DNA of 64,000 bases, taken from the NCBI GenBank assembly GCA_963824755.1, contig CAWGQT010000022.1, positions 22,930 to 86,929 on the forward strand. The letters run 5' to 3'. The DNA is from an uncultured Solirubrobacterales bacterium (GTDB taxonomy: Bacteria > Actinomycetota > Thermoleophilia > Solirubrobacterales > Solirubrobacteraceae). The first letter of the stretch is position 1, and the number at the start of each line of letters is the position of its first letter. The notes under the pieces are model-generated. The model made no database searches, had not been told where the DNA came from, and saw nothing but the letters and a program-made list of their open reading frames with translations. This document shows positions 23,787-61,704 of the stretch, piece after piece. The position numbers and the translations under genes were made by a program.

Positions 23787-23807
23787 CTCAACCGTCCTCT
23801 TTCTCGA

Positions 23808-23945
23808 ATGCTTGCGGGGTTAGCTGACGGGCTCGCGACGAAAGAGCGGCGCTACGTGCTCGCGCACGATTAGCCCCAACAACTTGGTTCCCCCGCTTCC
23901 TTATGCCGTGGCCCGGGGGCCGGCGGAGCGGGAATTCAGCTGTAC
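23808..23945 (-). ncRNA. c-di-AMP riboswitch (ydaO/yuaA)
   Basis: Minus strand reads GCTGAATTCC...AAGGAAGCGGGGGAACCA..TTGGGGCTAATC...GTAGCG..CTCTT...GAGCCCGTCAGCTAACCCCGCAAGC, matching the ydaO conserved blocks in order. Confidence 0.88.
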
Positions 23946-24017
23946 GGAGCGGCGCATGCTAACACCGCGTCCGGATCGAAGCGCGGTCAGCTGAATGGCC
24001 CCCGGCCGGGAGGGCCG

Positions 24018-49570: not shown

Positions 49571-50575
49571 ATGATCCCGGGCGCGGTGAACTTCTCCTCG
49601 GCGCTCACTCACATCGACCGTGTGCAGCGGCGCACTCCGGCGCTCGCCGTCCCCGTCGCAGTGATCAAGAAGTTCCTCGACGACGGGGTCAACCGACTCG
49701 GCGTCCAGATCGCCTACTGGGGCTTCTTCTCCGTCTTCGCGCTGCTGCTCGTGTTCGCCTCGATCCTCGGCTTCGTGTTTCAAAGCGACCCCAGCCTCCA
49801 GCATCGGCTGGTGGACTCGACAATCGAGCGCCTGCCGGTGATCGGTCCCCAGCTCCGCGGGAGCGTCGGCTCGCTGACGGGAAGCGGGGTCGCGCTTGCG
49901 ATCGGCTTGATCGGCGCGCTGTGGACCGGCCTTGCCGTGACACTCGCGTTCGGCAACGCGCTTGACCGGATCTGGGCGGTTCCGCAGGTCAGACGTGCCG
50001 GCTTCGTCAGCTCACGGGCGCGCGGACTCCTCGTGCTGGCATCGATCGGAACCGCCAACGTCGCGGCGACCATCGGCGTCGGGCTCGCGGCGTCCGGCGG
50101 CGCAGGGGGAACGATCACGAACATTCTGAGCCTGCTCGGCTCGGCGTTCGTCGACGTCGTTCTGTTCACGGTGTCGTTTCGCCTCCTGACCAGCGCCCAG
50201 ACCACGGTGCGTGAGGTGCTTCCAGGCGCCCTGCTGGCGAGCGCCTGCTGGTTGGGGCTCCAGGTGGCTGGCGGCGTCTACGTGACCAGGGTGCTGGCGG
50301 GAAGCAGCGAAACGTACGGCGGCTTCGCGGCCGTGGTAGGCCTGCTGACGTGGCTCCTGCTGGCATCGGAGCTCGTGCTGATCGCCGCCGAGTTGAACGT
50401 CGTGCTGGCGCGCCGGCTGTGGCCGCGCTCCCTGACGGGCGAGCTGCTCGAGACCGACGAGCGCGCGCTCGGCGACGCGGCGCGTGCGGCTCAGCTGCAT
50501 CCGCGCCAGCAGATCACCGTCAGCTTCACGCCGTCAGGGGGCGAGAATGCGGGCGAGGAGCCTGGAGGGACCTGA
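49571..50575 (+). CDS. YihY/virulence factor BrkB family membrane protein
   Basis: DD..R....IAYWGFFSVF.L, GSLTGSG.AL.IG, ALDRIW, TYGGFAAVVGLL.WL. Confidence 0.88.
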   Translation: MIPGAVNFSSALTHIDRVQRRTPALAVPVAVIKKFLDDGVNRLGVQIAYWGFFSVFALLLVFASILGFVFQSDPSLQHRLVDSTIERLPVIGPQLRGSVGSLTGSGVALAIGLIGALWTGLAVTLAFGNALDRIWAVPQVRRAGFVSSRARGLLVLASIGTANVAATIGVGLAASGGAGGTITNILSLLGSAFVDVVLFTVSFRLLTSAQTTVREVLPGALLASACWLGLQVAGGVYVTRVLAGSSETYGGFAAVVGLLTWLLLASELVLIAAELNVVLARRLWPRSLTGELLETDERALGDAARAAQLHPRQQITVSFTPSGGENAGEEPGGT

Positions 50576-50611
50576 GTTCCCTTTGGACTCCGGCCGGGGC
50601 GCGAGATACTG

Positions 50612-51133
50612 GTGTGGATGGCAAAGGAGCGACCGGTCGCTCGTTCGGGCGCGTCAGCGAACGCGCCCTGGGATGTGGAGGTCACGGTGACGAGTGTGCC
50701 TCCCGTACGGCGTCGGACCGCCACGAGTTTGTTCGTCTCGCGGCCGCTTGCCGGCTTGGCATTGGTACTTGCTCTCCTCGCCGCGGTGGCCTTCGGTCTT
50801 CTCGGGCACCGTGGGGCCGCTCACCGGCTCACCGGGCCAGCCGCCGTAGCGCCCGACACGGGCGCACTGGCTGCAGTCGCAATGTCGTACGGGTACCCGT
50901 CGCGATGCCTGAACGTCACGATTTCACCCAGCGTCCCGGCCTACGCCCAGGCCGAGCTCGTTCGGAGGCCCGGCTGCCCGCCGTATCGAGGGTACGTCAA
51001 CGCGACCTTTCATCGCGTCGATGGCACCTGGCGACTGGTACTCGACGAGGGGCAGCTGTTCGTCCCGAACCGGCTCCTCCGCCGGTGCCGCGCCGCATGG
51101 CCCAGCTGCCGGCCCACCCGGGCTCGCTGGTAG
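50612..51133 (+). CDS. Membrane-anchored or secreted hypothetical protein
   Basis: Hydrophobic segment then YGYP..C...C..Y domain; start uncertain. Confidence 0.5.
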   Translation: MWMAKERPVARSGASANAPWDVEVTVTSVPPVRRRTATSLFVSRPLAGLALVLALLAAVAFGLLGHRGAAHRLTGPAAVAPDTGALAAVAMSYGYPSRCLNVTISPSVPAYAQAELVRRPGCPPYRGYVNATFHRVDGTWRLVLDEGQLFVPNRLLRRCRAAWPSCRPTRARW

Positions 51134-51181
51134 CCTGGCGCCTGCACACGGAAGTCGTAGGAGATCAAAGGGGGACGGAGC

Positions 51182-51651
51182 GTGACTAGTCTCAGGCGGT
51201 TGGTGCCGCGGTAGCGATCGCGGCTCCGCTGGTCGTGGTTGTCGCCGGCGGCTCGGCACTCGGCGCGCCAGGCAGTGTCGGCCGACCGGCACGCAACGGG
51301 CGCTGGACGGGCCGCACATCACAGGGCCTGGCAATCGCTCTGCGCGTCCGCGATCACCGCGTCGTCTCGATCAGCGGCACCGTTCACCTCACCGCGGTGG
51401 CCGGCTTCGTCGCTGGCGCTTGCGCGCAACCCCGCAAGTTCAGTGCCACGCTGAACAGCGCTGGATCGGGGCCCGGCACCAGCGACACCCACGGGTTCCG
51501 CCTGTGGGTCGTGAAAGATCCATTTGCCTGGGCCAAGGGCCGGATCACCGGCGCGCGCACGATCAGGGGCACGCTGACCTTCCAATCCGACGGTTCTCCC
51601 GATCCTTGCGAGGCTTCCGTGCACTTCACAGCCCACCCGGCTGTCAGCTGA
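51182..51651 (+). pseudogene. Secreted hypothetical protein with a probable 1-nt frameshift in the signal peptide
   Basis: RBS plus GTG 51182 gives MTSLRR then stops; adding one base near 51200 yields MTSLRRxGAAVAIAAPLVVVVAGG continuing into the 51235 ORF. Confidence 0.45.
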
Positions 51652-51702
51652 GTCAGCTGCTTGCGGGCGCGCGGCGTTAGCTGCAGGTTGATGGCGCCCG
51701 GG

Positions 51703-51729
51703 TGATCCGCTTCGCAGCCGGCCGCGTAT
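51703..51729 (+). promoter_or_regulatory. ECF-type promoter motif, copy 1
   Basis: TGATCC-gcttcgcagccggccg-CGTAT, ending 7-10 nt before the NiCoT start. Confidence 0.65.
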
Positions 51730-51738
51730 AGGCCGGTG

Positions 51739-52890
51739 ATGGAAGCTCTCTCGTTGCCGTCGTCGGGCGAGTCGCGGCTGGCGCGAATCAAGGCGTCGAT
51801 GTCGCCGCAGGAGTGGCGGCGGCTCGGCGGAATGGCCGCCGTGATCGCCGGCCTGCACATCCTGGGGTTCGGGCTCCTGATCCTGGTGGTAGCGCCGGAG
51901 CACCTCAAGCTCGGTGCGGCCGGCACGTTCGCGATTGGAACCGGAATTACGGCGTACACACTTGGTATGCGCCACGCGTTCGACGCCGACCACATCTCCG
52001 CGATCGACAACACCACGCGAAAGATGATGGGCGAGGGCAAGCGCCCTTTGAGCGTCGGCTTCTTCTTCTCGCTCGGGCACTCGACGATCGTGTTCGGCCT
52101 GACGTTCCTGCTCGCGATCGGCATCCGCGCGCTGAGCGGCCCCGTTCAGAACAGCCAGTCGACGTTGCACAAGGCGACGAACGTGATCGGGACCACCGTG
52201 TCGGGAGCGTTTCTGTACATCATCGCGATTCTCAACATCCTGATCCTGGTGAGCATCGTCCGGATCTTCTTCGGGATGCGGCGGGGGGCGTACGACGAGC
52301 ACGAGCTCGAGCAACAGCTCAACTCTCGCGGACTGATGAGCCGCTTCTTCGGCAAGCGGCTGAACGCGATCAAGGACCCGTGGCATATGTATCCCATCGG
52401 CATCCTGTTCGGCCTCGGATTCGACACCGCCACCGAGATCGGGCTGCTCGTCCTGGCCGCCGGCGCGGGCGCGGCGGGCCTGCCGTTCTACGCGATCCTC
52501 TGCCTGCCGGTCCTGTTCGCCGCCGGCATGTCATTGCTCGACACGATCGACGGGTCGTTTATGAACTTTGCGTACGGCTGGGCGTTCTCCAAGCCTGTTC
52601 GCAAGGTTTATTACAACATCACGATCACAGGGTTGTCGGTGGTAGTTGCCCTGTTTATCGGAACCTGCGAGCTGTTGGGGCTGCTGGTCCAAAAACTCGG
52701 ACTGCACGGCCCGGTCGCCGGCTGGTTCCAGCACTTCAACATCAACACCGCCGGATTCATCATCGTCGCGATGTTTGTTGGTACCTGGGCTCTCGCACTT
52801 GCGATCTGGCGCTTCGCCAAGATCGAAGAGAAATGGAGCGTCGGCATGCAGCTCGCGGCCACGCGCTCCGGCCGCAAGCAGGACACTTGA
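51739..52890 (+). CDS. HoxN/HupN/NixA (NiCoT) nickel/cobalt permease
   Basis: GMRHAFDADHISAID (HX4DH signature), FFSLGHSTIV, GLGFDTATEI, DTIDG..M..AY.WAF..P.RK.YYN.TIT. Confidence 0.95.
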   Translation: MEALSLPSSGESRLARIKASMSPQEWRRLGGMAAVIAGLHILGFGLLILVVAPEHLKLGAAGTFAIGTGITAYTLGMRHAFDADHISAIDNTTRKMMGEGKRPLSVGFFFSLGHSTIVFGLTFLLAIGIRALSGPVQNSQSTLHKATNVIGTTVSGAFLYIIAILNILILVSIVRIFFGMRRGAYDEHELEQQLNSRGLMSRFFGKRLNAIKDPWHMYPIGILFGLGFDTATEIGLLVLAAGAGAAGLPFYAILCLPVLFAAGMSLLDTIDGSFMNFAYGWAFSKPVRKVYYNITITGLSVVVALFIGTCELLGLLVQKLGLHGPVAGWFQHFNINTAGFIIVAMFVGTWALALAIWRFAKIEEKWSVGMQLAATRSGRKQDT

Positions 52891-52901
52891 GACACTTCCG
52901 T

Positions 52902-52928
52902 TGATCCAAGTCGGCGTGCAGCTCGTAT
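52902..52928 (+). promoter_or_regulatory. ECF-type promoter motif, copy 2
   Basis: TGATCC-aagtcggcgtgcagct-CGTAT upstream of tatA. Confidence 0.65.
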
Positions 52929-52965
52929 TGGTCATAACAAACCTCGAGCCTGATCGGAGTCACAC

Positions 52966-53205
52966 ATGCTTGGACTTGACAATCCAATTCACATTCTCTT
53001 CCTGCTGGTGATTCTGCTTCTGGTATTCGGCGCCAAGCGGTTGCCGGAGTTGGGACGTTCGCTCGGTTCGGGTCTGCGAGGGTTCAAGGACACGATCAAC
53101 GGCGATCCCGCCCGCCCGGAGCAGCTGACCGCAAACGCCGCGCTGGCGAGCGAGCCGACCTCCGAGTCCCGCGAGAACAGCACCACCGCGAGCCACGCCG
53201 CGTAG
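52966..53205 (+). CDS. tatA: Twin-arginine translocase subunit TatA
   Basis: TM helix, then FGAKRLPELGRSLG.GLRGFK amphipathic helix; RBS ggag. Confidence 0.93.
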   Translation: MLGLDNPIHILFLLVILLLVFGAKRLPELGRSLGSGLRGFKDTINGDPARPEQLTANAALASEPTSESRENSTTASHAA

Positions 53206-53236
53206 CTCCGGGCGTACTCACCGACCATCTGTCCCG

Positions 53237-54223
53237 ATGCGGGCTGCTGCCGTGCTCAGGCCGATCGGCCAGGCCGATCACCTGACCGTCGTCGACCACC
53301 TCGACGAGCTCCGCGCGCGGCTGATCGTCTCGCTACTCGCAGTCGCGGTCGCGTTCGGGCTGTGCTTCTGGCAGAACCACCGGCTGCTGCGTTTGATCAA
53401 CGCCCCGCTCGCGCACCAGACACAACAACAGGTGCGCGATGGGCAAGGCCCGCTGGGAGCCACTTACACTGTCAGCCGCAGCGCGAGGGACGTGGCCGTC
53501 CAGCTGCAGACGGTCGTCGGTCTGCTGGCTGCCGAGCGGGGCCAGCCGGCGGTGTCCAGGACGCTCCGTCAGGTCGACGCGAATCTTGGCCGCGACGTCG
53601 CCCGGCTCTCGGCTCCACCGCCCGGCGACCGTCCGGTGACGCTCGGGATCGGCGAACCGTTCACGACGACCGTCACCGTGTCACTGATCTTCGCGCTGAT
53701 TCTCGCGCTCCCCGTTCTGTTGCTTCAGGCTTACGCATTCTTGATGCCGGCGGCCGACCCGGCACTGCGCCGGCGGATGCGACCGGTACTGCTCGCGATC
53801 CCGATCCTGATGACCGCCGGCGTGACCTTCGGCTACTTCGTCGTCCTGCCCGCGGCTCTGCACTTCTTCCAGAACTTCAACAGCACGCAGTTCAACGTGC
53901 TCGTACAGGCGAGCCAGTACTACAAGTTCGCTGCGACCATCCTGCTCGCCATGGCCCTTCTGTTCCAGATTCCCGTCGTCATACTGGGGATCACGCGAGC
54001 GGGCTTGGTAACCCCTGCACAACTGCGCCGGAATCGGCGCTATGCGCTCGGGGCGTGCGCGTTGCTCGCCGCGGTTCTGCCTGGCGATGTGATCACGATG
54101 CTGCTCGAGATTGCGCCGCTGTACCTGCTGTTCGAAGGCAGTGTCTTGGTAGCGGCCATCGCCGCACGCCGCCGTGGATCTCGCGTCGGTGACACTTCGC
54201 CGACTTCCGTCCCGGCTGGGTGA
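53237..54223 (+). CDS. tatC: Twin-arginine translocase subunit TatC (atypical)
   Basis: HLDELRARL, EPF, P.LL.Q..AF..P, G..FGYFVVLP.AL.FF, FQIP, RRNRRYA, PGD...M. Confidence 0.92.
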   Translation: MRAAAVLRPIGQADHLTVVDHLDELRARLIVSLLAVAVAFGLCFWQNHRLLRLINAPLAHQTQQQVRDGQGPLGATYTVSRSARDVAVQLQTVVGLLAAERGQPAVSRTLRQVDANLGRDVARLSAPPPGDRPVTLGIGEPFTTTVTVSLIFALILALPVLLLQAYAFLMPAADPALRRRMRPVLLAIPILMTAGVTFGYFVVLPAALHFFQNFNSTQFNVLVQASQYYKFAATILLAMALLFQIPVVILGITRAGLVTPAQLRRNRRYALGACALLAAVLPGDVITMLLEIAPLYLLFEGSVLVAAIAARRRGSRVGDTSPTSVPAG

Positions 54224-54247
54224 TCCGTTTTCGCGCGGCATCCGTAT
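54221..54247 (+). promoter_or_regulatory. ECF-type promoter motif, copy 3
   Basis: TGATCC-gttttcgcgcggcatc-CGTAT starting at the tatC stop codon. Confidence 0.65.
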
Positions 54248-54300
54248 CGGATGTCAACAAGCCAACCACCACCCAGCTCAGGGGGTTGAAAGGAGCAGTT

Positions 54301-54630
54301 ATGACCGACGAGCGGAACAGCGGCGGCGGAGTGACGCGGCTGTCGTTCATCAAGGCGGGCGCAGGCGTAGCTGCGGGAGTCGCCGCGGCCAGCGTCCCTG
54401 CCGCAGCCGTGCTTTCCGGGGAGAAGAAGGGCGTTGTTACCTCGCCTTCGTCTTCCGCGCCGAAAGAACCGGTAATGGCGTACGTGCGCGATGCGCAGAA
54501 GGGCGAGGTGACGGTGTTGTCCGGCACCGCCGAGACGACGTATCGCGACCACGGGCTCGTCCGGCGTCTGATGGACGCCGCACCCGAGCCTTCAAGCCTG
54601 AACGGAGGAATCGATGTCATCGCACCGTGA
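54301..54630 (+). CDS. Small protein with Tat-like signal peptide (T-R-L-S-F-I-K)
   Basis: RBS gaaaggag; VTRLSFIK, then Ala-rich h-region and PAAA; overlaps the DUF4331 start by 17 bp. Confidence 0.75.
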   Translation: MTDERNSGGGVTRLSFIKAGAGVAAGVAAASVPAAAVLSGEKKGVVTSPSSSAPKEPVMAYVRDAQKGEVTVLSGTAETTYRDHGLVRRLMDAAPEPSSLNGGIDVIAP

Positions 54631-56014
54631 AGCACCGGAGATCAGCAAGGATCCGGTGGCGGACCACACGGACGTTTATGCGTTCGTCAGTCCCGACCGA
54701 CCGGACACGGTCACGCTGATCAGTAACTTCGTTCCGCTTCAGGATCCCCCTGGCGGACCGAACTTCTTCGAGTTCGGCGACGACGTCCTGTACTCGATCA
54801 ACATCGACAACGACGGCGACGGGGTCCCGGAGATCTCCTACGTCTTCAGGTTCCAGACCCTCCTGCGTGACACAGAGACGTTCCTGTACAACACGGGTCC
54901 GATCACCTCGCTCGGCAGCAAGAACTGGAACAAGCGTCAGTTCTATTCGGTCACGCGTGTAACGGGTGGCGACACGACAAAGTTCGGGAACGGCGGCCGC
55001 GGGCTGAGGGCAAAGGTGCTCGGCACCAATCTGCAGTGCCCGCCGTGCAACATTGGGCCACGCTCGACGCCGAACTACCCGGCACTCGGTGCTGCCGCCG
55101 TTCACACCCTATCGGGCGGCGTCAAGGTGTTCGCCGGTCAGCGGCTGGAGGGGTTCTACGTCGACCTCGGAGCGATCTTCGATCTCGGCGACCTGCGCCC
55201 GTTCCAGCACCTGCACCTGATCCCCAGCGCCGACGCGGTGGGGGTTGACGCGACCAAGACGCTCAATGTCCACACGATCGCGATTCAGGTACCGATCTCA
55301 GACCTGACCGCAAGCAGGTCGGTGCCAAAGAATCCGATGAGCAAGAACGCGGTGATCGGCGTGTGGTCCTCGTCCAGCCGCCGCAAGGTGCGGATGCTGA
55401 ACGGCAACGGCGTTCCGTCTGAGTCCGGGCCCTGGGTTCAGGTCTCACGACTCGGCAATCCGCTGTTCAACGAGGTGATCGTGCCGCTCGGCGACAAGGA
55501 TCGCTGGAACGCCCTGCCGCCGGCTGCTGACAAGCAGTTCGTCAAGTACGTGGAGAAGCCCGAGCTCGCCGGCCTGCTGCCGGTTCTGTACCCGGGCGTG
55601 TTCCCGAACTTGGCGAAGTTGAACAAGCCGCGCGCCGATCTGGTGGCGGTGCTGCTGACAGGCATTCCGTCCGGCATCGTTCCCGGGTTCCAGAACTACA
55701 CGGGCAAGACGCTGGCCGACCAGCTGCGGCTCAACCTCGCGATCCCGCCGACGAAGTCCAAGCCGAGCCTGTATGGCCTGCTCGGCGGCGACGCCGCCGG
55801 TTTCCCCAACGGGCGGCGGGTGTTCGACGACATCGTCAGCATCGAGCTGCGAGCGATTGCCGGCGTCACCTACGCACTGGTCGACAAGTCCTTCAAGCCC
55901 GATGGAGCGGCGTCGGAGCTGACGGAGGGACTGACACCCGGTGCGGGCCGCTACCAGAGCACGTTCCCGTATCTCGGCACGCCGAGGAGCGGGTTCGACA
56001 CGCCGTCCAGTTAG
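54614..56014 (+). CDS. DUF4331 domain protein (no signal peptide, N-terminus MSSHREAP)
   Basis: SSHREAP.I..DP.AD.TD.YAF, F.F.DDV.Y.I.IDN.GDG, FAGQR...F.VDLG.IFD, QVSRLGNPLFNEV, GFPNGRR..DD. Confidence 0.88.
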   Translation: MSSHREAPEISKDPVADHTDVYAFVSPDRPDTVTLISNFVPLQDPPGGPNFFEFGDDVLYSINIDNDGDGVPEISYVFRFQTLLRDTETFLYNTGPITSLGSKNWNKRQFYSVTRVTGGDTTKFGNGGRGLRAKVLGTNLQCPPCNIGPRSTPNYPALGAAAVHTLSGGVKVFAGQRLEGFYVDLGAIFDLGDLRPFQHLHLIPSADAVGVDATKTLNVHTIAIQVPISDLTASRSVPKNPMSKNAVIGVWSSSSRRKVRMLNGNGVPSESGPWVQVSRLGNPLFNEVIVPLGDKDRWNALPPAADKQFVKYVEKPELAGLLPVLYPGVFPNLAKLNKPRADLVAVLLTGIPSGIVPGFQNYTGKTLADQLRLNLAIPPTKSKPSLYGLLGGDAAGFPNGRRVFDDIVSIELRAIAGVTYALVDKSFKPDGAASELTEGLTPGAGRYQSTFPYLGTPRSGFDTPSS

Positions 56015-56029
56015 GTGCAGTTCCCGGGT

Positions 56030-56055
56030 GCTGGGCGCCACGGACGGCGCCCAGC
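56030..56055 (+). terminator. Strong hairpin between DUF4331 and His-rich gene (terminator, attenuator or mRNA stabiliser)
   Basis: gctgggcgcc-acggac-ggcgcccagc followed by tcttc. Confidence 0.55.
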
Positions 56056-56085
56056 TCTTCACACTCGATCCCGAAAGAGGACTTG

Positions 56086-56481
56086 ATGGGCCACCAGCAC
56101 TCCGACCACCTCCACGATCACGACCACCCGCACGCACACCCGGTCGAGAACTACTCGGCGCGAAAGCACCCGGAGTTCGTCGTGCTCGACATCGGCGAGG
56201 AGCTCGGCGCTCTGATCATCTACGCCGACCCTGAGATGCACGGCCGCGAGATCGAGATCAGCCCTGCCGGACGCGACGGTGACCGCAGCCACAAGGAGGT
56301 GCTCGAGCGAAGCGAAGGAGGCCACCCGGCGTTCACGGCGGTGTTCGACGCGCTACCTGCCGGCGCCTACACCCTATGGGTCGACGACAGACCCCGTGCC
56401 TGGAACGTGAACATCGACTGTGGCGCGATCGCCCAGCTCGACTGGAGGAGCGCACGGGCCACCTCCCCCTCCGCGGCCTGA
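56086..56481 (+). CDS. His-rich small protein, putative metal chaperone
   Basis: 8 His in the first 18 residues (MGHQHSDHLHDHDHPHAH), then VVLDIG.ELGALIIY..PE..GREIEISP and AVFDALPAG.YTLW. Confidence 0.75.
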   Translation: MGHQHSDHLHDHDHPHAHPVENYSARKHPEFVVLDIGEELGALIIYADPEMHGREIEISPAGRDGDRSHKEVLERSEGGHPAFTAVFDALPAGAYTLWVDDRPRAWNVNIDCGAIAQLDWRSARATSPSAA

Positions 56482-56525
56482 GCCGGTACGGCGCGTCGCC
56501 AGGTTCTAGCGGTCCACCACCGGCT

Positions 56526-57947
56526 TCAAAGACTCCCGACCGCGAATGTTCTCAGCGCGGCTCGCAGCTGGCTTGAGAAAGGGAGCGCCTGGTTGAATCC
56601 CGCCTCGTCACGGGTCAGGTCTTCCTTGAGCATGTGATCAATGCCGTCGAGGTGCACATAGTCGAGTTTCGCCTGCGCCTCAGTGAGACCCTGGGCGATG
56701 CGGTCTTCTTGCGCGCAGGTGAACCACATATCGGCGTTGCTGCAGGTCAAGAGCACCGGCGTCCGCGGGGCCAGCCTTGACGCGAGTTTGGCCGGATCGT
56801 AGTGGTCGATCTGCGAGAGCTCGAGCGGCGTGCCGTTGGCGTTGAAGGCATTGACCAGGGCGGCGGACACGCCCGCGGGCAGCATTCCCGTGCGGCGCAT
56901 GTACGCGACCACGCGTGCTCCGATCGGCGATCCAGCGAACAAGCTGAGAAAACGAGCAGGCACGGGCTCGAACAGGCCCACCGCATGGACCTTGGGCGCG
57001 CCGGGCAGCCCGGTCGCGAGCAGCAGCGCGTATATGCCGCCCTGGCTGTGACCGAACACGGCAAGGCGTGCACGGTTGGTCTGCCGCCGCGTGGCGAGAA
57101 AGCGCAGCGCGGCGACGGCTTCCTGCTCGTACGGCTTGATCCCGACGCGATCTGTATGCGCAGCGTATTTGCCCCAACCGGTCTGGCCGCTGCCGAGCTG
57201 GTCATAGCGCAGGCTTGCGACCCCATCGGCCGACAGCCAGTTGGCCACCGCCGCGAGCGTGTTTCGACCAAGCTGCTCGTCAGGACTTCCCGCCGGGCGC
57301 GGTCCTGTCCAGCAATCTCTCGTGCAGTTGTCGTTGCGGTCAGTCGCCCCGCCGCCGCCGAGCAGCACTGCAGCTGGAATCGATCCGGCGACCGCGATCC
57401 GCGGATGCGTGTACGTTCCGTAGATCGTCACCCCGCCGGCCTGGAACGTGACCGGCTGAGCCAGCCACCCGGGTGCAAGCCGAGGAATCATGCTCTGCGG
57501 TGACGCCGTCGCTGGGAGCGCCTGCATCGGCAGGAGGCCGGAGATCAGGCCGTCGGCGTTGACGGCCAGCGCGCCTCGGAAGCGCTGCGCGCCCCGGACC
57601 GAGATCACGAACGCGATCGACCTCGCCTGGCTGCTCGTAACCGAGACGAGGTGAACCTGCGCGACGCCGGCGAGCCCGCTATTGAGCTCGGCCACAGAAG
57701 TCCTGGCCAACAAGAGCGAGCTGACATGAGCTCGCAGTGCAGTGTCGGAGATGGGCAGATGGTTGAGCGCCTGGATCAGCCAGCGTGCCTGCGCCCCGGC
57801 CGGCGTACTGGGAAACGTTGGGCCGGCGGTCGTAGACGCCGACTGACTGCTCCCGCACCCGGCCAGAAGTGCGCTCGCCAGACCGACCGCCGCCCACCGC
57901 CGCCACGCCCACCTCCCCGCGCAAGATCCATCAACCATCTTGATCAC
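56526..57947 (-). CDS. Alpha/beta hydrolase lipoprotein
   Basis: Lipobox LAGC, DRNDN, SLRYD..G.G, GHSQG nucleophile elbow, late Asp and His (IDHMLK); start uncertain. Confidence 0.8.
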   Translation of the reverse strand: MIKMVDGSCAGRWAWRRWAAVGLASALLAGCGSSQSASTTAGPTFPSTPAGAQARWLIQALNHLPISDTALRAHVSSLLLARTSVAELNSGLAGVAQVHLVSVTSSQARSIAFVISVRGAQRFRGALAVNADGLISGLLPMQALPATASPQSMIPRLAPGWLAQPVTFQAGGVTIYGTYTHPRIAVAGSIPAAVLLGGGGATDRNDNCTRDCWTGPRPAGSPDEQLGRNTLAAVANWLSADGVASLRYDQLGSGQTGWGKYAAHTDRVGIKPYEQEAVAALRFLATRRQTNRARLAVFGHSQGGIYALLLATGLPGAPKVHAVGLFEPVPARFLSLFAGSPIGARVVAYMRRTGMLPAGVSAALVNAFNANGTPLELSQIDHYDPAKLASRLAPRTPVLLTCSNADMWFTCAQEDRIAQGLTEAQAKLDYVHLDGIDHMLKEDLTRDEAGFNQALPFSSQLRAALRTFAVGSL

Positions 57948-58049
57948 CTCGCTTCAAGCGGTCGTCGACCAAATGGCAAGCAGAAGCCCGCGTACCAGTC
58001 GTACTCTCGACTATGAGCGCTCGCGGACTCCACCACATCCGCCGTTTGT

Positions 58050-59054
58050 CGGGAAGTACTGGCGCAGCAGCCCGTTGGTGTTCTCATTGGTGCCGCGCTG
58101 CCACGGACTGTGTGGATCGCAGAAGTACACCGGCAGGCCGGTCTCGATCCGCAGCTGGGCGTGTTGGGCCATCTCGGTGCACTGGTCCCAGGTCAGCGAG
58201 CGGCGCAGCTGCTCAGGCAGCGTGACGATCGTCCTGGCGATCGCGTCGCGGACCGCCTCGGCGCCGTGCCCCGTTAGCGCGGGGCCGTCCTTTACTCGCG
58301 GCGCTTGGCCGGTCATCGGCGGGAGGTAGAGCAGCATCGTAAAGCGGGTTGAGCGCTCCACCAGCGTGCCGATCGCCGAGCTCCTCGCTCCGATGATGAG
58401 GTCGCCTTCCCAATGGCCGGGAACCGCCCTGTCCTGGGCTTCGGCGGGGCGTTGGCTGATCATCACCTCGTCGCTGACGAACCCGCGACCGCGACCGCTG
58501 GTGCGAGCTCTCGGGACCCGCAACGCCCGCCCGGTCCGCAGACAGGCCGTCAGCTCACGCCGCAACGCGCCACGCCCCTGAACGTACAGCGACTGGTAGA
58601 TCGCCTCGTGCGAGATACGCATTGACTCATCATCGGGGAACTCCAAGCGCAGGCGATTGGAAATCTGCTCAGGGCTCCACGCCCTCGCCCAGCGCCGATC
58701 CTTGCGCAGACCGTGACGCCGCCCGATCCACCTCACCCCAGGACCGTCGAGAGCCGTCCCATCGGGCCGCTTGACAGCTCCCGACAGACGGTCCTGCACA
58801 TACCGTCGCAGCCCGGCGTTCACGACCAGCTTCGCCGGCTTCGCACGCGAGCGCGCCGGTCCGCGTACCGCTGCGCCGAGCTCGCCCGATACTCAACGAC
58901 GCCGCCACACCTCACGACGTTCCGACGCAACTCACGAGAGATCGTCGACGGCGAACGCCCGAGCTGACGAGCGATCCCCCGCACCCCACACCCCCCAGCG
59001 CGCAGGATCGCGATCTCCTCCCGCTCAGCGAACGACAGATAACGCCCCGACAGA
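58050..59054 (-). mobile_element. IS30-family transposase remnant, truncated at both ends and frameshifted
   Basis: LSFAEREEIA, RSPSTISRELRRN, WSPEQIS.RL, ISHEAIY, PGHWEGDLI, LTWDQ, QRGTNENTNGLLRQYFP then breaks off; frameshift near 58847. Confidence 0.9.
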
Positions 59055-60060
59055 TTTGCGTAGTTGTCGGTTCAACGCCTCGATCGCGTTCGTCGTGTAA
59101 ATCACGCGACGGACCTCAGGCTCGAACTGAAGGAATGGTGTGACGTGCTCCCAGGCGTCCTGCCAGGCTTGAACGATCGGCGGGAACCGCTTGCCCCACT
59201 TCTCATCGAACGCCTCGAGCGCCGCCCAGGCAGCGTCCTGGTCGATCGCGGTGTAGATCGGCTTGAGGTCCTTGGCGACCTGGTCGAACTCGCGGCGCGG
59301 GACGTAGCGCAATGACCGTCGGATGAGATGCACGATGCATGTCTGCACGACGGTCTGCGGGAAGATCGCCTCGATCGCTTCGGGAAACCCGGTCAGCCCG
59401 TCGACGCAGCAGATCAGGATGTCTCTGACGCCGCGGTGTTTGAGTTCTGAGAGCACTTGCATCCAGAACTTCGCGCCCTCTGTCTCTTGGAACCACATGC
59501 CGAGCACGTCGCGCTCGCCGCTGACACGGACGCCGAGCGCGAGGTAGCACGCCTTGCGCTGCACGCTGCCGCCCTCCTTGACCTTGAGCACGAACGCGTC
59601 GAGGAACACGACCGGGTACACGTCGTCGAGCGGTCGCTGCTGCCACGCGCGGGCGTCTTCCATGACGGCGTCGGTACGCGGCTGATCAGATCCCGGCCGA
59701 CGTTGACGCCGTAGAGCTCGCGCAGGTAGCGCTCGATATCCCGCGTCGAGAGCCCACGGCTGTAGAGCGCGAGGATCTTCTCGTCGAACCCCTCAAAGCG
59801 CCGCTGACGCTTTCTGACCAGTTGCGGCTCAAAGCTGCCATCGCGATCGCGAGGCGCCTTGATCGACACCGGCCCGTGCTCGGTTATGAGCGTCTTCGGC
59901 TTGCCCTTCCCGTTGCGCGTGTTCCCCGTCCCGCCAGGCGGCTCCTGATGCGCCTCATAGCCGAGATGGTCGGTCAGCTCGACCTCCAGCGCCCGCTCGA
60001 CCAACCGCTTGGTCAACTCGCCGAACACGCCACCACGGCCGAAAATCTCCTCCTGGCCTC
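59055..60060 (-). mobile_element. IS256-family transposase remnant, truncated and frameshifted
   Basis: LTKRLVERALE.ELTDHLGY, PRDRDGSFEP, YSRGLSTRDI, VFLDA, DGLTGFPEAI, QTCIVHLIR, IYTTNAIE.LNRQLRK then breaks off; frameshift near 59676. Confidence 0.9.
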
Positions 60061-60138
60061 TGCCCGGATCCGTACTGAACCCGGAACCGCAGTACATGCG
60101 CGCCTGGTCGATACCAGGCGGTTAGGTGAGCCTCTTGC

Positions 60139-61704
60139 GTGAGACTTAGGATTGCGGCGTGCGTCCCCCGAAGGGTTGCTGAGCTGAGCACGGAGTTGGC
60201 ACGTTTCGCGCTGGCCGGAGCGTTGCTCGTGGCGGCGCTCGCGAAGCTCGCTGACCGTAGCGGCAGTCGCGAGTCGATCATCGCTTTCGGCGCCCCGGAG
60301 CCTGCGGCTGCCCCGCTCTCGTGGCTGCTGATCGGCAGCGAGCTGGCGATCGCCGCGGCTCTGTTGATAGGGCGCTGGAGCGTCGCGGGGGCCGTGGCCA
60401 CGCTGGGGCTGCTGGCTGCGTTCAGCGTTGTCGTTGCGGTGGCCCTGGCTCGTGGCAGGACGCCCGCGTGCAACTGCTTCGGGCGACTCTCGGGTGGTCT
60501 GGTCGGCTGGTCCACGGTCGCGCGGAACGCGCTCTTGGGGTCGATGGCCGGTTTCATCGCCCTGGGGGGTCGAGAGCCTGTCGTGTTCGCGGCGCTCGCG
60601 GCGGCATCGTGCGCCGCGTGGCTGGGGCTCGGCCCTCTCCGACATCGCCTGCGCAATACGCGCGCATCTGGCTTCTCGTTGACAGGGGACGGTGGCGAGC
60701 GGTGGACGGTCGATCGGCTCCTGGACGGTGACCGCTCCCTGCTGCTGGTATTCGGACAACCGGGTTGTGGCGCCTGCCATGCCCTGGTTCCAGACCTGGC
60801 TGGCTGGCAGGCCCGGCTGATGGATCGGCTGATCGTCGTGTTGGTGGTTCAGGCCTCGCGGCCCGGAGAGCTGGCTTCCGATCCACGCAACCCCGGCTAC
60901 CGGGTGCTACTAGACGCGCCGGGACAGCTCGCGGCTCGGTATGGCGTCAGGGCCACGCCGAGTGCTGTCCTAATCGACGCAGGAGGTCGGACGGCTTCGG
61001 CCGTGGCAAAGGGCGGCGGCGAGATTTCGGCACTGATCGATGTCAGGTTCGCGGCTGAGGAGACGCAGCGCATACCACGGCGCTCGCTCATAGCCCGTGC
61101 TGTGCGGAACGCGGTCGCGCTGGGAGTCTCTCCAGTCGTCCTCGCCGCTTGCGGAAGCAGCCGGTCGACGTCTTCCTCGACGCCATCAACGGCTACGACC
61201 TCGACGCGTCCCGCAGCGCTGAAGATCGGCAACACCTACATCTGTCGACAGCAATATGCGCTGTGCACAAACGCGGCGTGTGTACCGTCCGAGCACGATC
61301 CAAACATCGTGGTCTGCGATTGCGTCGTCGAGAGTGGCTACTCAGTCGGGTTCACGTCTTGTCCACAGCGGGCGCCACACGGTCGCACCCTGTACTCGAC
61401 GTTCTCGACCGAGGTGGCTGCTGCGGCCCGTGGCGCTATGACATGCCCAGCAGATGTGGCGTGGGCCAACTGCCTGGACGCGATCTGCGAACTCGACCCT
61501 AAGAACCCGGATAAGGCCCGGTGTCAATGCCCGCTCGTCAAGCAAGGGCCGTCGTTCACCTTCGGCGGCGACTGCAATACGCATACCTGCGGATCGACGG
61601 TCTGGTCGGGAGCGCACACGAACGCCGGCGGCCCGAGCATCGCGGCAGCGATGAAGCGCCTTGGCCAACCGCTGGTTTTCCCCAAGCCGTGCCCGAAGGC
61701 GTGA
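60139..61704 (+). CDS. Fusion of MauE/DoxX, thioredoxin-like (CGAC), internal RR-lipoprotein signal and Cys-rich domain
   Basis: AKL.D..G, CNCFG MauE motif; PGCGACH..P.L..W; YGV.ATPSAVLID; PRRSLI...LAAC; 14-Cys C-terminal domain. Confidence 0.75.
   Translation: MRLRIAACVPRRVAELSTELARFALAGALLVAALAKLADRSGSRESIIAFGAPEPAAAPLSWLLIGSELAIAAALLIGRWSVAGAVATLGLLAAFSVVVAVALARGRTPACNCFGRLSGGLVGWSTVARNALLGSMAGFIALGGREPVVFAALAAASCAAWLGLGPLRHRLRNTRASGFSLTGDGGERWTVDRLLDGDRSLLLVFGQPGCGACHALVPDLAGWQARLMDRLIVVLVVQASRPGELASDPRNPGYRVLLDAPGQLAARYGVRATPSAVLIDAGGRTASAVAKGGGEISALIDVRFAAEETQRIPRRSLIARAVRNAVALGVSPVVLAACGSSRSTSSSTPSTATTSTRPAALKIGNTYICRQQYALCTNAACVPSEHDPNIVVCDCVVESGYSVGFTSCPQRAPHGRTLYSTFSTEVAAAARGAMTCPADVAWANCLDAICELDPKNPDKARCQCPLVKQGPSFTFGGDCNTHTCGSTVWSGAHTNAGGPSIAAAMKRLGQPLVFPKPCPKA

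Follow-up and report, generated by a model that had tools for sequence, protein, structure and literature searches.

We analysed a stretch of 64,000 nucleotides (nt) from an uncultured Solirubrobacterales bacterium (contig CAWGQT010000022.1 of assembly GCA_963824755.1, positions 22,930 to 86,929; hereafter the window) and in it a cluster of six genes encoding a NicT permease, TatA and TatC of the pathway for twin-arginine translocation (Tat), a small protein with a Tat-type signal (here called the escort), a DUF4331 protein and a protein with a histidine-rich tail (the His-tailed partner). The reading that we tentatively favour is that this cluster is a module for making an exported metal-binding protein, probably a nickel protein, in which DUF4331 would be loaded with nickel in the cytoplasm and would then leave the cell piggy-back on the escort through the Tat pathway. 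All six genes that an initial annotation of the window had described as co-oriented are indeed present on the + strand (51736-56481), with intergenic gaps of only 31-77 nt or overlaps between them (Table 1).

A scan of one genome per species returned at least 566 relatives of the window DUF4331, and the best 80 loci were analysed together with that of the window. These 81 loci, in which DUF4331 has no signal peptide, span at least three phyla, with representatives in Solirubrobacterales, Gaiellales, Acidimicrobiia, Kribbella, Streptosporangiaceae, Dormibacterota and Ktedonobacteraceae. For comparison we used an even sample of 301 Actinomycetota genomes, 61 of which contain DUF4331, and took the 30 best loci as the signal-bearing set; 20 signal-bearing loci were extended to 18 kb. 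In all 30 of them DUF4331 has its own signal peptide ending ...A/SSHREAP (the slash denotes the predicted cleavage). A hidden Markov model of the mature domain located the escort immediately upstream of DUF4331 in 79/81 signal-less loci and in none of the 30 signal-bearing ones. Of the two loci without a match one is cut by a contig end (L059) and in the other none was found (L022). Given these counts, escort and own signal peptide are mutually exclusive, as a hitchhiker arrangement with the signal in trans predicts: a signal-bearing partner adjoins a signal-less cargo whose relatives are exported. The earlier proposal that a signal-less subunit rides on a signal-bearing one is consistent with this either/or pattern.

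The other genes of the cluster are linked to DUF4331 to different degrees. In 75/81 signal-less loci the His-tailed partner is no more than 5 kb from DUF4331, usually immediately downstream, and it was found in none of the signal-bearing loci (0/30 with 1.5-kb flanks and 0/20 with 8-kb flanks); the linkage of a histidine-rich gene noted in the window therefore extends to the signal-less class and to that class only. Although there are few NicT copies per genome, NicT is within 5 kb of DUF4331 in 39/81 loci (28/55 where both flanks are complete). Both tatA and tatC occur within the same distance in 17/81 loci (13/55 with both flanks complete), in at least three different lineages. The co-occurrence of DUF4331 with NiCoT, tatAC and histidine-rich genes is thus not unique to this genome. 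An extracytoplasmic function (ECF) sigma factor stands beside approximately 24-27 of the signal-less loci and an RskA-type anti-sigma factor beside 10; a Fur-family regulator flanks 8 loci, a regulator of the ArsR family is found at 4, and a zinc-finger protein of the CGNR type is also recurrent.

The signal-bearing class has an operon of another kind. In the 20 extended loci DUF4331 is accompanied by a tetratricopeptide repeat (TPR) protein (19/20) and a NicO-family fusion permease (17/20), often also by an ECF sigma factor and an RskA anti-sigma factor. The fusion permease has an exported N-terminal domain that starts with His after predicted cleavage (A/HPLGNF). Neither the TPR protein nor the fusion permease was found in any of the 81 signal-less loci. 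Two unrelated architectures thus pair DUF4331 with permeases of the PF03824 family. No other observation argues as strongly for a role of DUF4331 in handling nickel or a metal like it, and the link to a nickel permease first suspected from the window alone is family-wide. Some signal-bearing DUF4331 proteins (L153-L172) have a C-terminal transmembrane anchor followed by a positively charged tail, and many others end in ...SGSD..PH.

DUF4331 itself is a very large family: a search of 1.84 billion representative sequences gave 5,659 matches, and there are more than 5,600 clusters at 50% identity. Most full-length members have an N-terminal signal peptide placed directly before SSHREAP, and the predicted signal-peptidase cleavage leaves X-S-H, as in ...ALA/SSHREAP. 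The signal-less proteins with a readable start all (79/79) begin with M-S-S-H-[RK]-E-[AG]-P and no signal peptide; that of the window reads M-S-S-H-R-E-A-P. As far as the sequences tell, DUF4331 is a family of extracytoplasmic proteins whose mature N-terminus is always X-Ser-His, and in the signal-less clade it has lost its own signal peptide. The sole invariant His among 71 diverse members is His4. An N-terminus of the form NH2-X-X-His is the amino-terminal Cu(II)- and Ni(II)-binding (ATCUN) motif, which requires a free amino group. The window protein fits this pattern by its predicted N-terminus (His at position 3, no Pro at position 2), Met being expected to be removed before Ser. It also has a DxDxDG-like loop, NIDNDGDG, at residue 63. 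An AlphaFold2 model of the protein was obtained with high scores (predicted local distance difference test, pLDDT, 93.5; predicted template modelling score, pTM, 0.93). A fold search with this model against the PDB gave no match (best E 0.07, template modelling score at most 0.14), nor did a PDB sequence search, and a literature search for DUF4331 or PF14224 returned no paper mentioning either.

The permease of the cluster carries the HX4DH signature of NicT in its second transmembrane helix (HAFDADHI at residue 80) and scores above the NF052500 cut-off. It is therefore a member of the NiCoT/NicT family, within which the sequence does not separate nickel from cobalt preference. Permeases of the NicT type are importers. 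There are three NicT paralogues in the genome, including the cluster copy, and one of the others lies approximately 8 kb from the [NiFe]-hydrogenase genes on contig C18. Since the hydrogenase has a NicT paralogue of its own, the cluster copy is not needed for it and is free for another client. It had been stated that the window contains no hydrogenase, urease or nickel superoxide dismutase (NiSOD) gene, and we found none there, the [NiFe]-hydrogenase being elsewhere in the genome. A search of the genome for urease found none, and the search for NiSOD was uninformative as its control search matched nothing.

The His-tailed partner begins with a disordered N-terminal tail containing 8 His in the first 22 residues, followed by a beta-sandwich of approximately 90 residues with conserved Glu56, Glu58, His70, Arg76 and Tyr96 (AlphaFold2 model, pLDDT 83). 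In the signal-less clade at large this tail is variable. Histidine-rich tails are also found in known nickel chaperones, HypB, UreE and SlyD among them. The partner stands outside the known chaperones HypA, HypB, UreE, SlyD, CooJ and CooT, with no match in Pfam, NCBIfam or a PDB sequence search, and shares with them only the His-rich tail. It has no signal peptide which, together with its restriction to the signal-less class, fits loading in the cytoplasm. In two Ktedonobacteraceae loci (L054 4377-5294 and L062 11533-12405) and in a record labelled Proteobacteria (L024 1250-2149) the beta-sandwich is fused to a conserved C-terminal domain of approximately 180 residues, for which we found no Pfam match and no homologue in the genome of the window.

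The likely start of the escort is the ATG at 54301, behind a GAAAGGAG ribosome-binding site, rather than the GTG at 54220. Its signal TRLSFIK (nt 54334-54354) is followed by an Ala/Gly-rich stretch and a mature domain of approximately 40-60 residues, with the core EPVMAYVRD..GEVTV..G..E..YRD..L..RL..AAP in the window and EPVVAYVRD..GEV.V..G..E....D..L..RL..AA as the consensus of the orthologues. We collected 296 homologues, which have no Pfam assignment. Across orthologues the N-terminus has the form S/T-R-R-x-F-[LIVM]-K, again followed by an Ala/Gly-rich stretch. The canonical twin-arginine (R-R) is found in 66 orthologues, which makes the escort a genuine family of Tat substrates; R-L is found in 11 (the window clade, L030 and L039) and G-R in 1. 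The window escort is of the R-L class and is not a twin-arginine signal in the strict sense, as the second Arg is missing and the rest of the motif fits.

This missing arginine has a possible counterpart in the TatC of the cluster. The protein belongs to the six-helix TatC family (PF00902, TIGR00945) and is one of two TatC proteins of the genome, 40% identical to the housekeeping TatC on contig C32; more TatA-like genes lie elsewhere in the genome. The initial annotation had called it atypical. A long insertion in the first loop was rejected as an atypical feature because it is common to both TatC genes of the genome, and what stands of the claim is an oddity at another place, Leu177 at the position of Glu103 of Escherichia coli TatC. 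The alignment to E. coli numbering was anchored on Pro97 and Arg104-Arg105, where the cluster TatC reads P-A-A-D-P-A-L-R-R against P-A-L-Y-K-H-E103-R-R in E. coli. The equivalents of E. coli His12 and Glu15 (HLDELR) and of Phe94 (YAF) are kept; Glu103 is replaced by Leu177 (codon 53765-53767), Leu99 by Ala and Tyr100 by Asp. With Glu103 and Tyr100 changed, the conserved set of signal-binding residues is incomplete in the cluster copy. In a cryo-electron microscopy (cryo-EM) study of 2026, the second arginine of the signal forms a salt bridge with TatC Glu103 and packs on Tyr100, the first arginine meets Glu15 via a water molecule, and the Glu103Ala change in TatC abolished binding (PMC13323110). 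The escort of the window (T-R-L-S-F-I-K) lacks exactly the second arginine that Glu103 contacts.

At the position of Glu103, TatC genes of the window type (approximately 70% identical) encode Gln, His, Arg or Leu in 11 genomes, and Glu is kept in all housekeeping-type TatC paralogues examined (more than 20). Escorts with TRLSFIK adjoin the Glu-less TatC in three genomes (the window, L008 and L015). In four others one or two exported Ferritin_2 (PF13668) proteins adjoin the Glu-less tatA-tatC pair (L100, 5787-8512 of G001; L101, L110 and L114), and their signals are TRLDFLR, TRMSFLR (two genomes) and the pair SRASFILR and ERKQFLR. All identifiable cargo genes adjoining this TatC type thus lack the second arginine. 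Where DUF4331 clusters of Gaiellales and other lineages have recruited a tatAC pair, its TatC retains Glu and the escort is R-R. Two observations weigh against a simple correspondence, namely that the Glu-less type also occurs in genomes with R-R escorts (G015, G016 and G017) and that four R-L genomes, each an incomplete assembly, gave no match to it. The pairing of R-L with Leu is for these reasons suggestive and not a strict covariation, which we rejected; what remains is the uniform lack of the second arginine in the adjoining cargo.

From these comparisons we conclude that the cluster TatC is probably a second translocase for single-arginine cargo, widespread in the order, which in this genome has been placed inside the DUF4331 cluster. 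The Glu-less type is not private to DUF4331. The earlier idea that DUF4331 is exported by its own TatAC is accordingly not supported in that form, since tatAC is nearby in just 17 of the 81 loci and the same TatC type stands beside single-arginine Ferritin_2 genes in at least four other genomes. A search of the window's own genome for a Ferritin_2 homologue found none. A LodA-like quinoprotein on contig C2, around 637791 on the - strand (LodA_N 216 bits, LodA_C 116 bits), has the signal TRAEFLR, without a second arginine and with a lipobox (LAAC); it is a possible further client of the Glu-less TatC. A genome-wide regular-expression scan for Tat signals gave one R-R match only and was too strict for a census.

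Taken together, the favoured reading is as follows. NicT would import Ni(II), and the His-tailed protein would buffer or deliver it. DUF4331 would fold in the cytoplasm, where removal of Met1 would expose NH2-Ser-Ser-His as an ATCUN-type Cu(II)/Ni(II) site needing a free amino terminus. If the metal is inserted before export, a cleavable signal would block this site until after export, and this would be the reason for carrying the signal peptide on a separate protein. The escort would bind the folded, metal-loaded DUF4331 and take it through the Tat pathway, and the receptor in this genome would be the adjacent TatA/TatC paralogue, whose lack of a Glu for the second arginine would match the R-L of the escort. 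We infer the formation of the complex, the identity of the metal, the place of loading, the TatC used and the co-export.

Several observations count against this scheme. About half of the loci lack NicT and three quarters lack tatAC. ATCUN sites have a preference for Cu(II) over Ni(II), so that the metal could be copper. The homologue alignment of the escort shows no conserved His or Cys, and the fold of the His-tailed partner is a generic beta-sandwich that matches only immunoglobulin- or carbohydrate-binding-module-like domains (best E 0.009). Moreover, most DUF4331 members carry ordinary signal peptides and must gain any metal outside the cell, so cytoplasmic loading is not a property of the family.

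The main rival is an explanation by metal uptake, which we regard as possible but doubtful. DUF4331 at the cell surface would use its Ser-Ser-His tip to capture Ni(II) or a different divalent metal in short supply and would hand it to a permease (NicT here), the cytoplasmic His-tailed protein would receive or store the imported metal, and the Tat piggy-back would be an export route only. NicT-type permeases do work as importers, and the signal-bearing operons are otherwise all outward-facing, with the TPR protein and with a NicO permease that has an exported His-start domain; the C-terminal membrane anchor of some signal-bearing DUF4331 proteins would hold them at the membrane surface. Published N-terminal-histidine "anglerase" domains on HupE/UreJ permeases and the Ni-binding DUF4198 have been proposed as metal fishers (PMC12537917). 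However, uptake leaves unexplained why the signal-less class traded its own signal peptide for an escort, why the cytoplasmic His-tailed protein occurs in that class only and why tatAC pairs were recruited repeatedly, and the slow release of metal by ATCUN sites suits capture followed by hand-off less well.

The export device could also be the same and the metal another one or none, with DUF4331 a copper or calcium protein, a non-metal enzyme or an adhesin and NicT a neighbour by regulation or history; this we consider rather improbable. The tighter binding of Cu(II) than of Ni(II) by NH2-X-X-His is established chemistry, the loop NIDNDGDG of the DxDxDG type suggests calcium, approximately half of the loci have no NicT, and with low G+C and adjoining insertion sequence (IS) elements some neighbours of the cluster may have come together by transfer. 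On the other hand, permeases of the NicO family occur beside DUF4331 of both classes, in two architectures that are unrelated, which is hard to obtain by accident, and a transition metal is also suggested by the His-rich tail and by the neighbours of the Fur and ArsR families. That the small open reading frame (ORF) and DUF4331 are one gene with its own Tat signal, split by a frameshift or a sequencing error, would agree with the 17-nt overlap of the two ORFs in different frames, but it is hardly credible and we rejected it: the two-gene layout is conserved in 79/81 loci, in many of these the genes are separated by a stop codon and by as much as approximately 100 nt, and every DUF4331 has a start codon of its own (ATG or GTG) with SSH behind it.

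Returning to the favoured reading of cytoplasmic loading and Tat export, its parts resemble four known systems. MelC1 of Streptomyces, the Tat-signal "caddie" of the tyrosinase MelC2, is needed for both copper insertion and Tat export of the complex. As with the escort and DUF4331, a small Tat-signal protein is encoded just upstream of a signal-less metalloprotein. However, the two systems are unrelated in sequence, the escort lacks conserved His and Cys, the cargo here is DUF4331 with a fold without PDB match, the likely metal is nickel, and a permease, a TatAC pair and a distinct His-tailed protein are additional parts of the cluster. In the [NiFe]-hydrogenase HybO/HybC, a signal-bearing subunit carries a signal-less subunit that was loaded with nickel in the cytoplasm, and His-rich chaperones (HypA/HypB) and nickel permeases (HoxN/Nik, NiCoT) cluster with genes of nickel enzymes. 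The likeness lies in the signal-bearing carrier with a signal-less cargo, the His-rich protein and the NiCoT permease. In contrast to the hydrogenase, none of the maturation families HypA-F is present here, the carrier is a mini-protein of approximately 70 residues and not an Fe-S subunit, and the presumed metal site is an N-terminal X-X-His tip, whereas that of the hydrogenase is formed by buried Cys.

Bacillus subtilis has cargo-linked minimal translocases, phoD-tatAd-tatCd and TatAy-TatCy, which use R-R signals and keep the conserved Glu. Here too, a second TatA/TatC pair is encoded beside a cargo in a Gram-positive-type bacterium, but at the position of Glu103 this TatC carries Leu, where relatives have Gln, His or Arg, and the cargoes next to it are without a second arginine. 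Proteins that capture metal with an N-terminal histidine include DUF4198 (Ni-binding), DUF6702 and the Ang-1/Ang-2 "anglerases" fused to HupE/UreJ-2 permeases (Franco Cairo et al. 2025, PMC12537917). Like DUF4331, they are exported, use a processed N-terminus as metal ligand and are genetically tied to nickel-type permeases, and the NicO-fusion permeases beside signal-bearing DUF4331 likewise begin with His after cleavage. In DUF4331, though, the His is residue 3 (ATCUN type) and not residue 1, and DUF4331 is not treated in that study. None of MelC1/MelC2, HybO/HybC, the N-terminal-His proteins and PhoD-TatAdCd is homologous to the parts described here.

Approximately one in five of the sampled Actinomycetota genomes has a member of the large DUF4331 family, which also occurs in many other phyla, and the pattern yields testable hypotheses on nickel, on the Ser-Ser-His ligand, on the escort with Tat export and on the helper proteins. 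If the favoured reading is true, the cluster would be a new member of the short list of nickel-dependent protein systems and a natural example of metal choice via cytoplasmic folding ahead of export. The TatC of the cluster amounts to a natural experiment in the reading of the twin-arginine motif by the Tat receptor, at a contact newly defined by cryo-EM. In a wider joint reading, which is speculative and on balance unlikely, DUF4331 would be a new and very large class of extracytoplasmic Ni(II)-dependent proteins, and Solirubrobacterales-type bacteria would have a natural single-arginine Tat pathway. In it, the active tip of a fold absent from the PDB could be the processed NH2-Ser-Ser-His, and there could be two maturation routes, by cytoplasmic loading and piggy-back Tat export or by an outside relay via the TPR protein and the NicO-fusion permease. 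The salt bridge between Glu103 and the second arginine, near-invariant elsewhere, may have been abandoned by receptor and cargo alike.

Table 1 Genes and motif copies of the cluster. Coordinates are those of the window. Column Remarks gives family matches with bit scores and, where applicable, cut-offs.
Feature	Coordinates	Strand	Length	Remarks
Degenerate motif copy GATCCTTGCGAGGCTTCCGT	51601..51620	+		116 nt 5' of NicT start; 3 mismatches to GACACTTN5ACTTCCGT
NicT, NiCoT-family nickel/cobalt permease	51736..52890	+	384 aa	NF052500 544 bits (cut-off 450), TIGR00802 381 bits, PF03824 (NicO) 328 bits
Exact motif copy GACACTTGAGACACTTCCGT	52882..52901	+		Overlaps NicT stop codon; ends 64 nt 5' of tatA
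TatA paralogue	52966..53205	+	79 aa	TIGR01411 58 bits (cut-off 53.9), PF02416 59 bits
TatC, second in genome	53237..54223	+	328 aa	PF00902 176 bits; TIGR00945 151 bits (cut-off 133)
Exact motif copy GACACTTCGCCGACTTCCGT	54191..54210	+		Within 3' end of tatC; ends 90 nt 5' of escort start
Escort, Tat-type signal and mature domain	54301..54630	+	109 aa	17-nt overlap with DUF4331 gene
DUF4331 protein, no signal peptide	54614..56014	+	466 aa	PF14224 465 bits, profile positions 1-421 of 421
His-tailed partner	56083/56086..56481	+	132 aa	Likely start ATG 56086; no Pfam/NCBIfam match

The initial annotation had also linked the genes by three copies of one promoter motif. Two copies are solid: the exact copies of GACACTT-N5-ACTTCCGT are the sole matches at up to 2 mismatches in the whole 6.4-Mb assembly, and for this reason they are a real element specific to the cluster. 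The third copy, at 51601, is weak, as 0.72 matches with 3 mismatches are expected per window by chance, and it is not significant alone. It sits in the 3' end of the second of two ORFs without family match upstream of NicT (50612-51651, +), which encode 173 residues with one predicted membrane helix and 138 residues. A role of the motif as a conserved regulatory site was rejected, since it was found neither in the related loci nor in the rest of the genome. A scan of the cluster for sigma-70-type promoters found none.

The genome assembly has 6.4 Mb in 38 contigs, and the host is a Solirubrobacterales-like soil actinobacterium. The G+C content of the cluster is 0.60-0.66, compared to approximately 0.69-0.72 in the flanks. 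A convergent alpha/beta-hydrolase gene lies 3' of the cluster, as do IS remnants (58011-60097, -): a weakly matching rve integrase-core fragment (58011-58823, -) and a Mutator/IS256-family transposase broken into two overlapping ORFs (59025-59663 and 59414-60097, -). The IS remnants and the lower G+C of 52000-56500 suggest that the cluster is in an acquired or rearranged region. DUF4331 is absent from two genomes of the same genus as the host. Further downstream (60139-61704, +) there is a fusion of 521 residues made up of a membrane domain of the MauE/DoxX type, a thioredoxin-like domain (AhpC/TSA) and a C-terminal part rich in Cys. An Rfam scan of 50500-57000 with E up to 1 gave no match, including none to a NiCo or cobalamin riboswitch. 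The sole Rfam match in the window is a cyclic di-AMP (c-di-AMP) riboswitch, RF00379, at 23794-23951 on the - strand, with 79.9 bits compared to a gathering score of 38.

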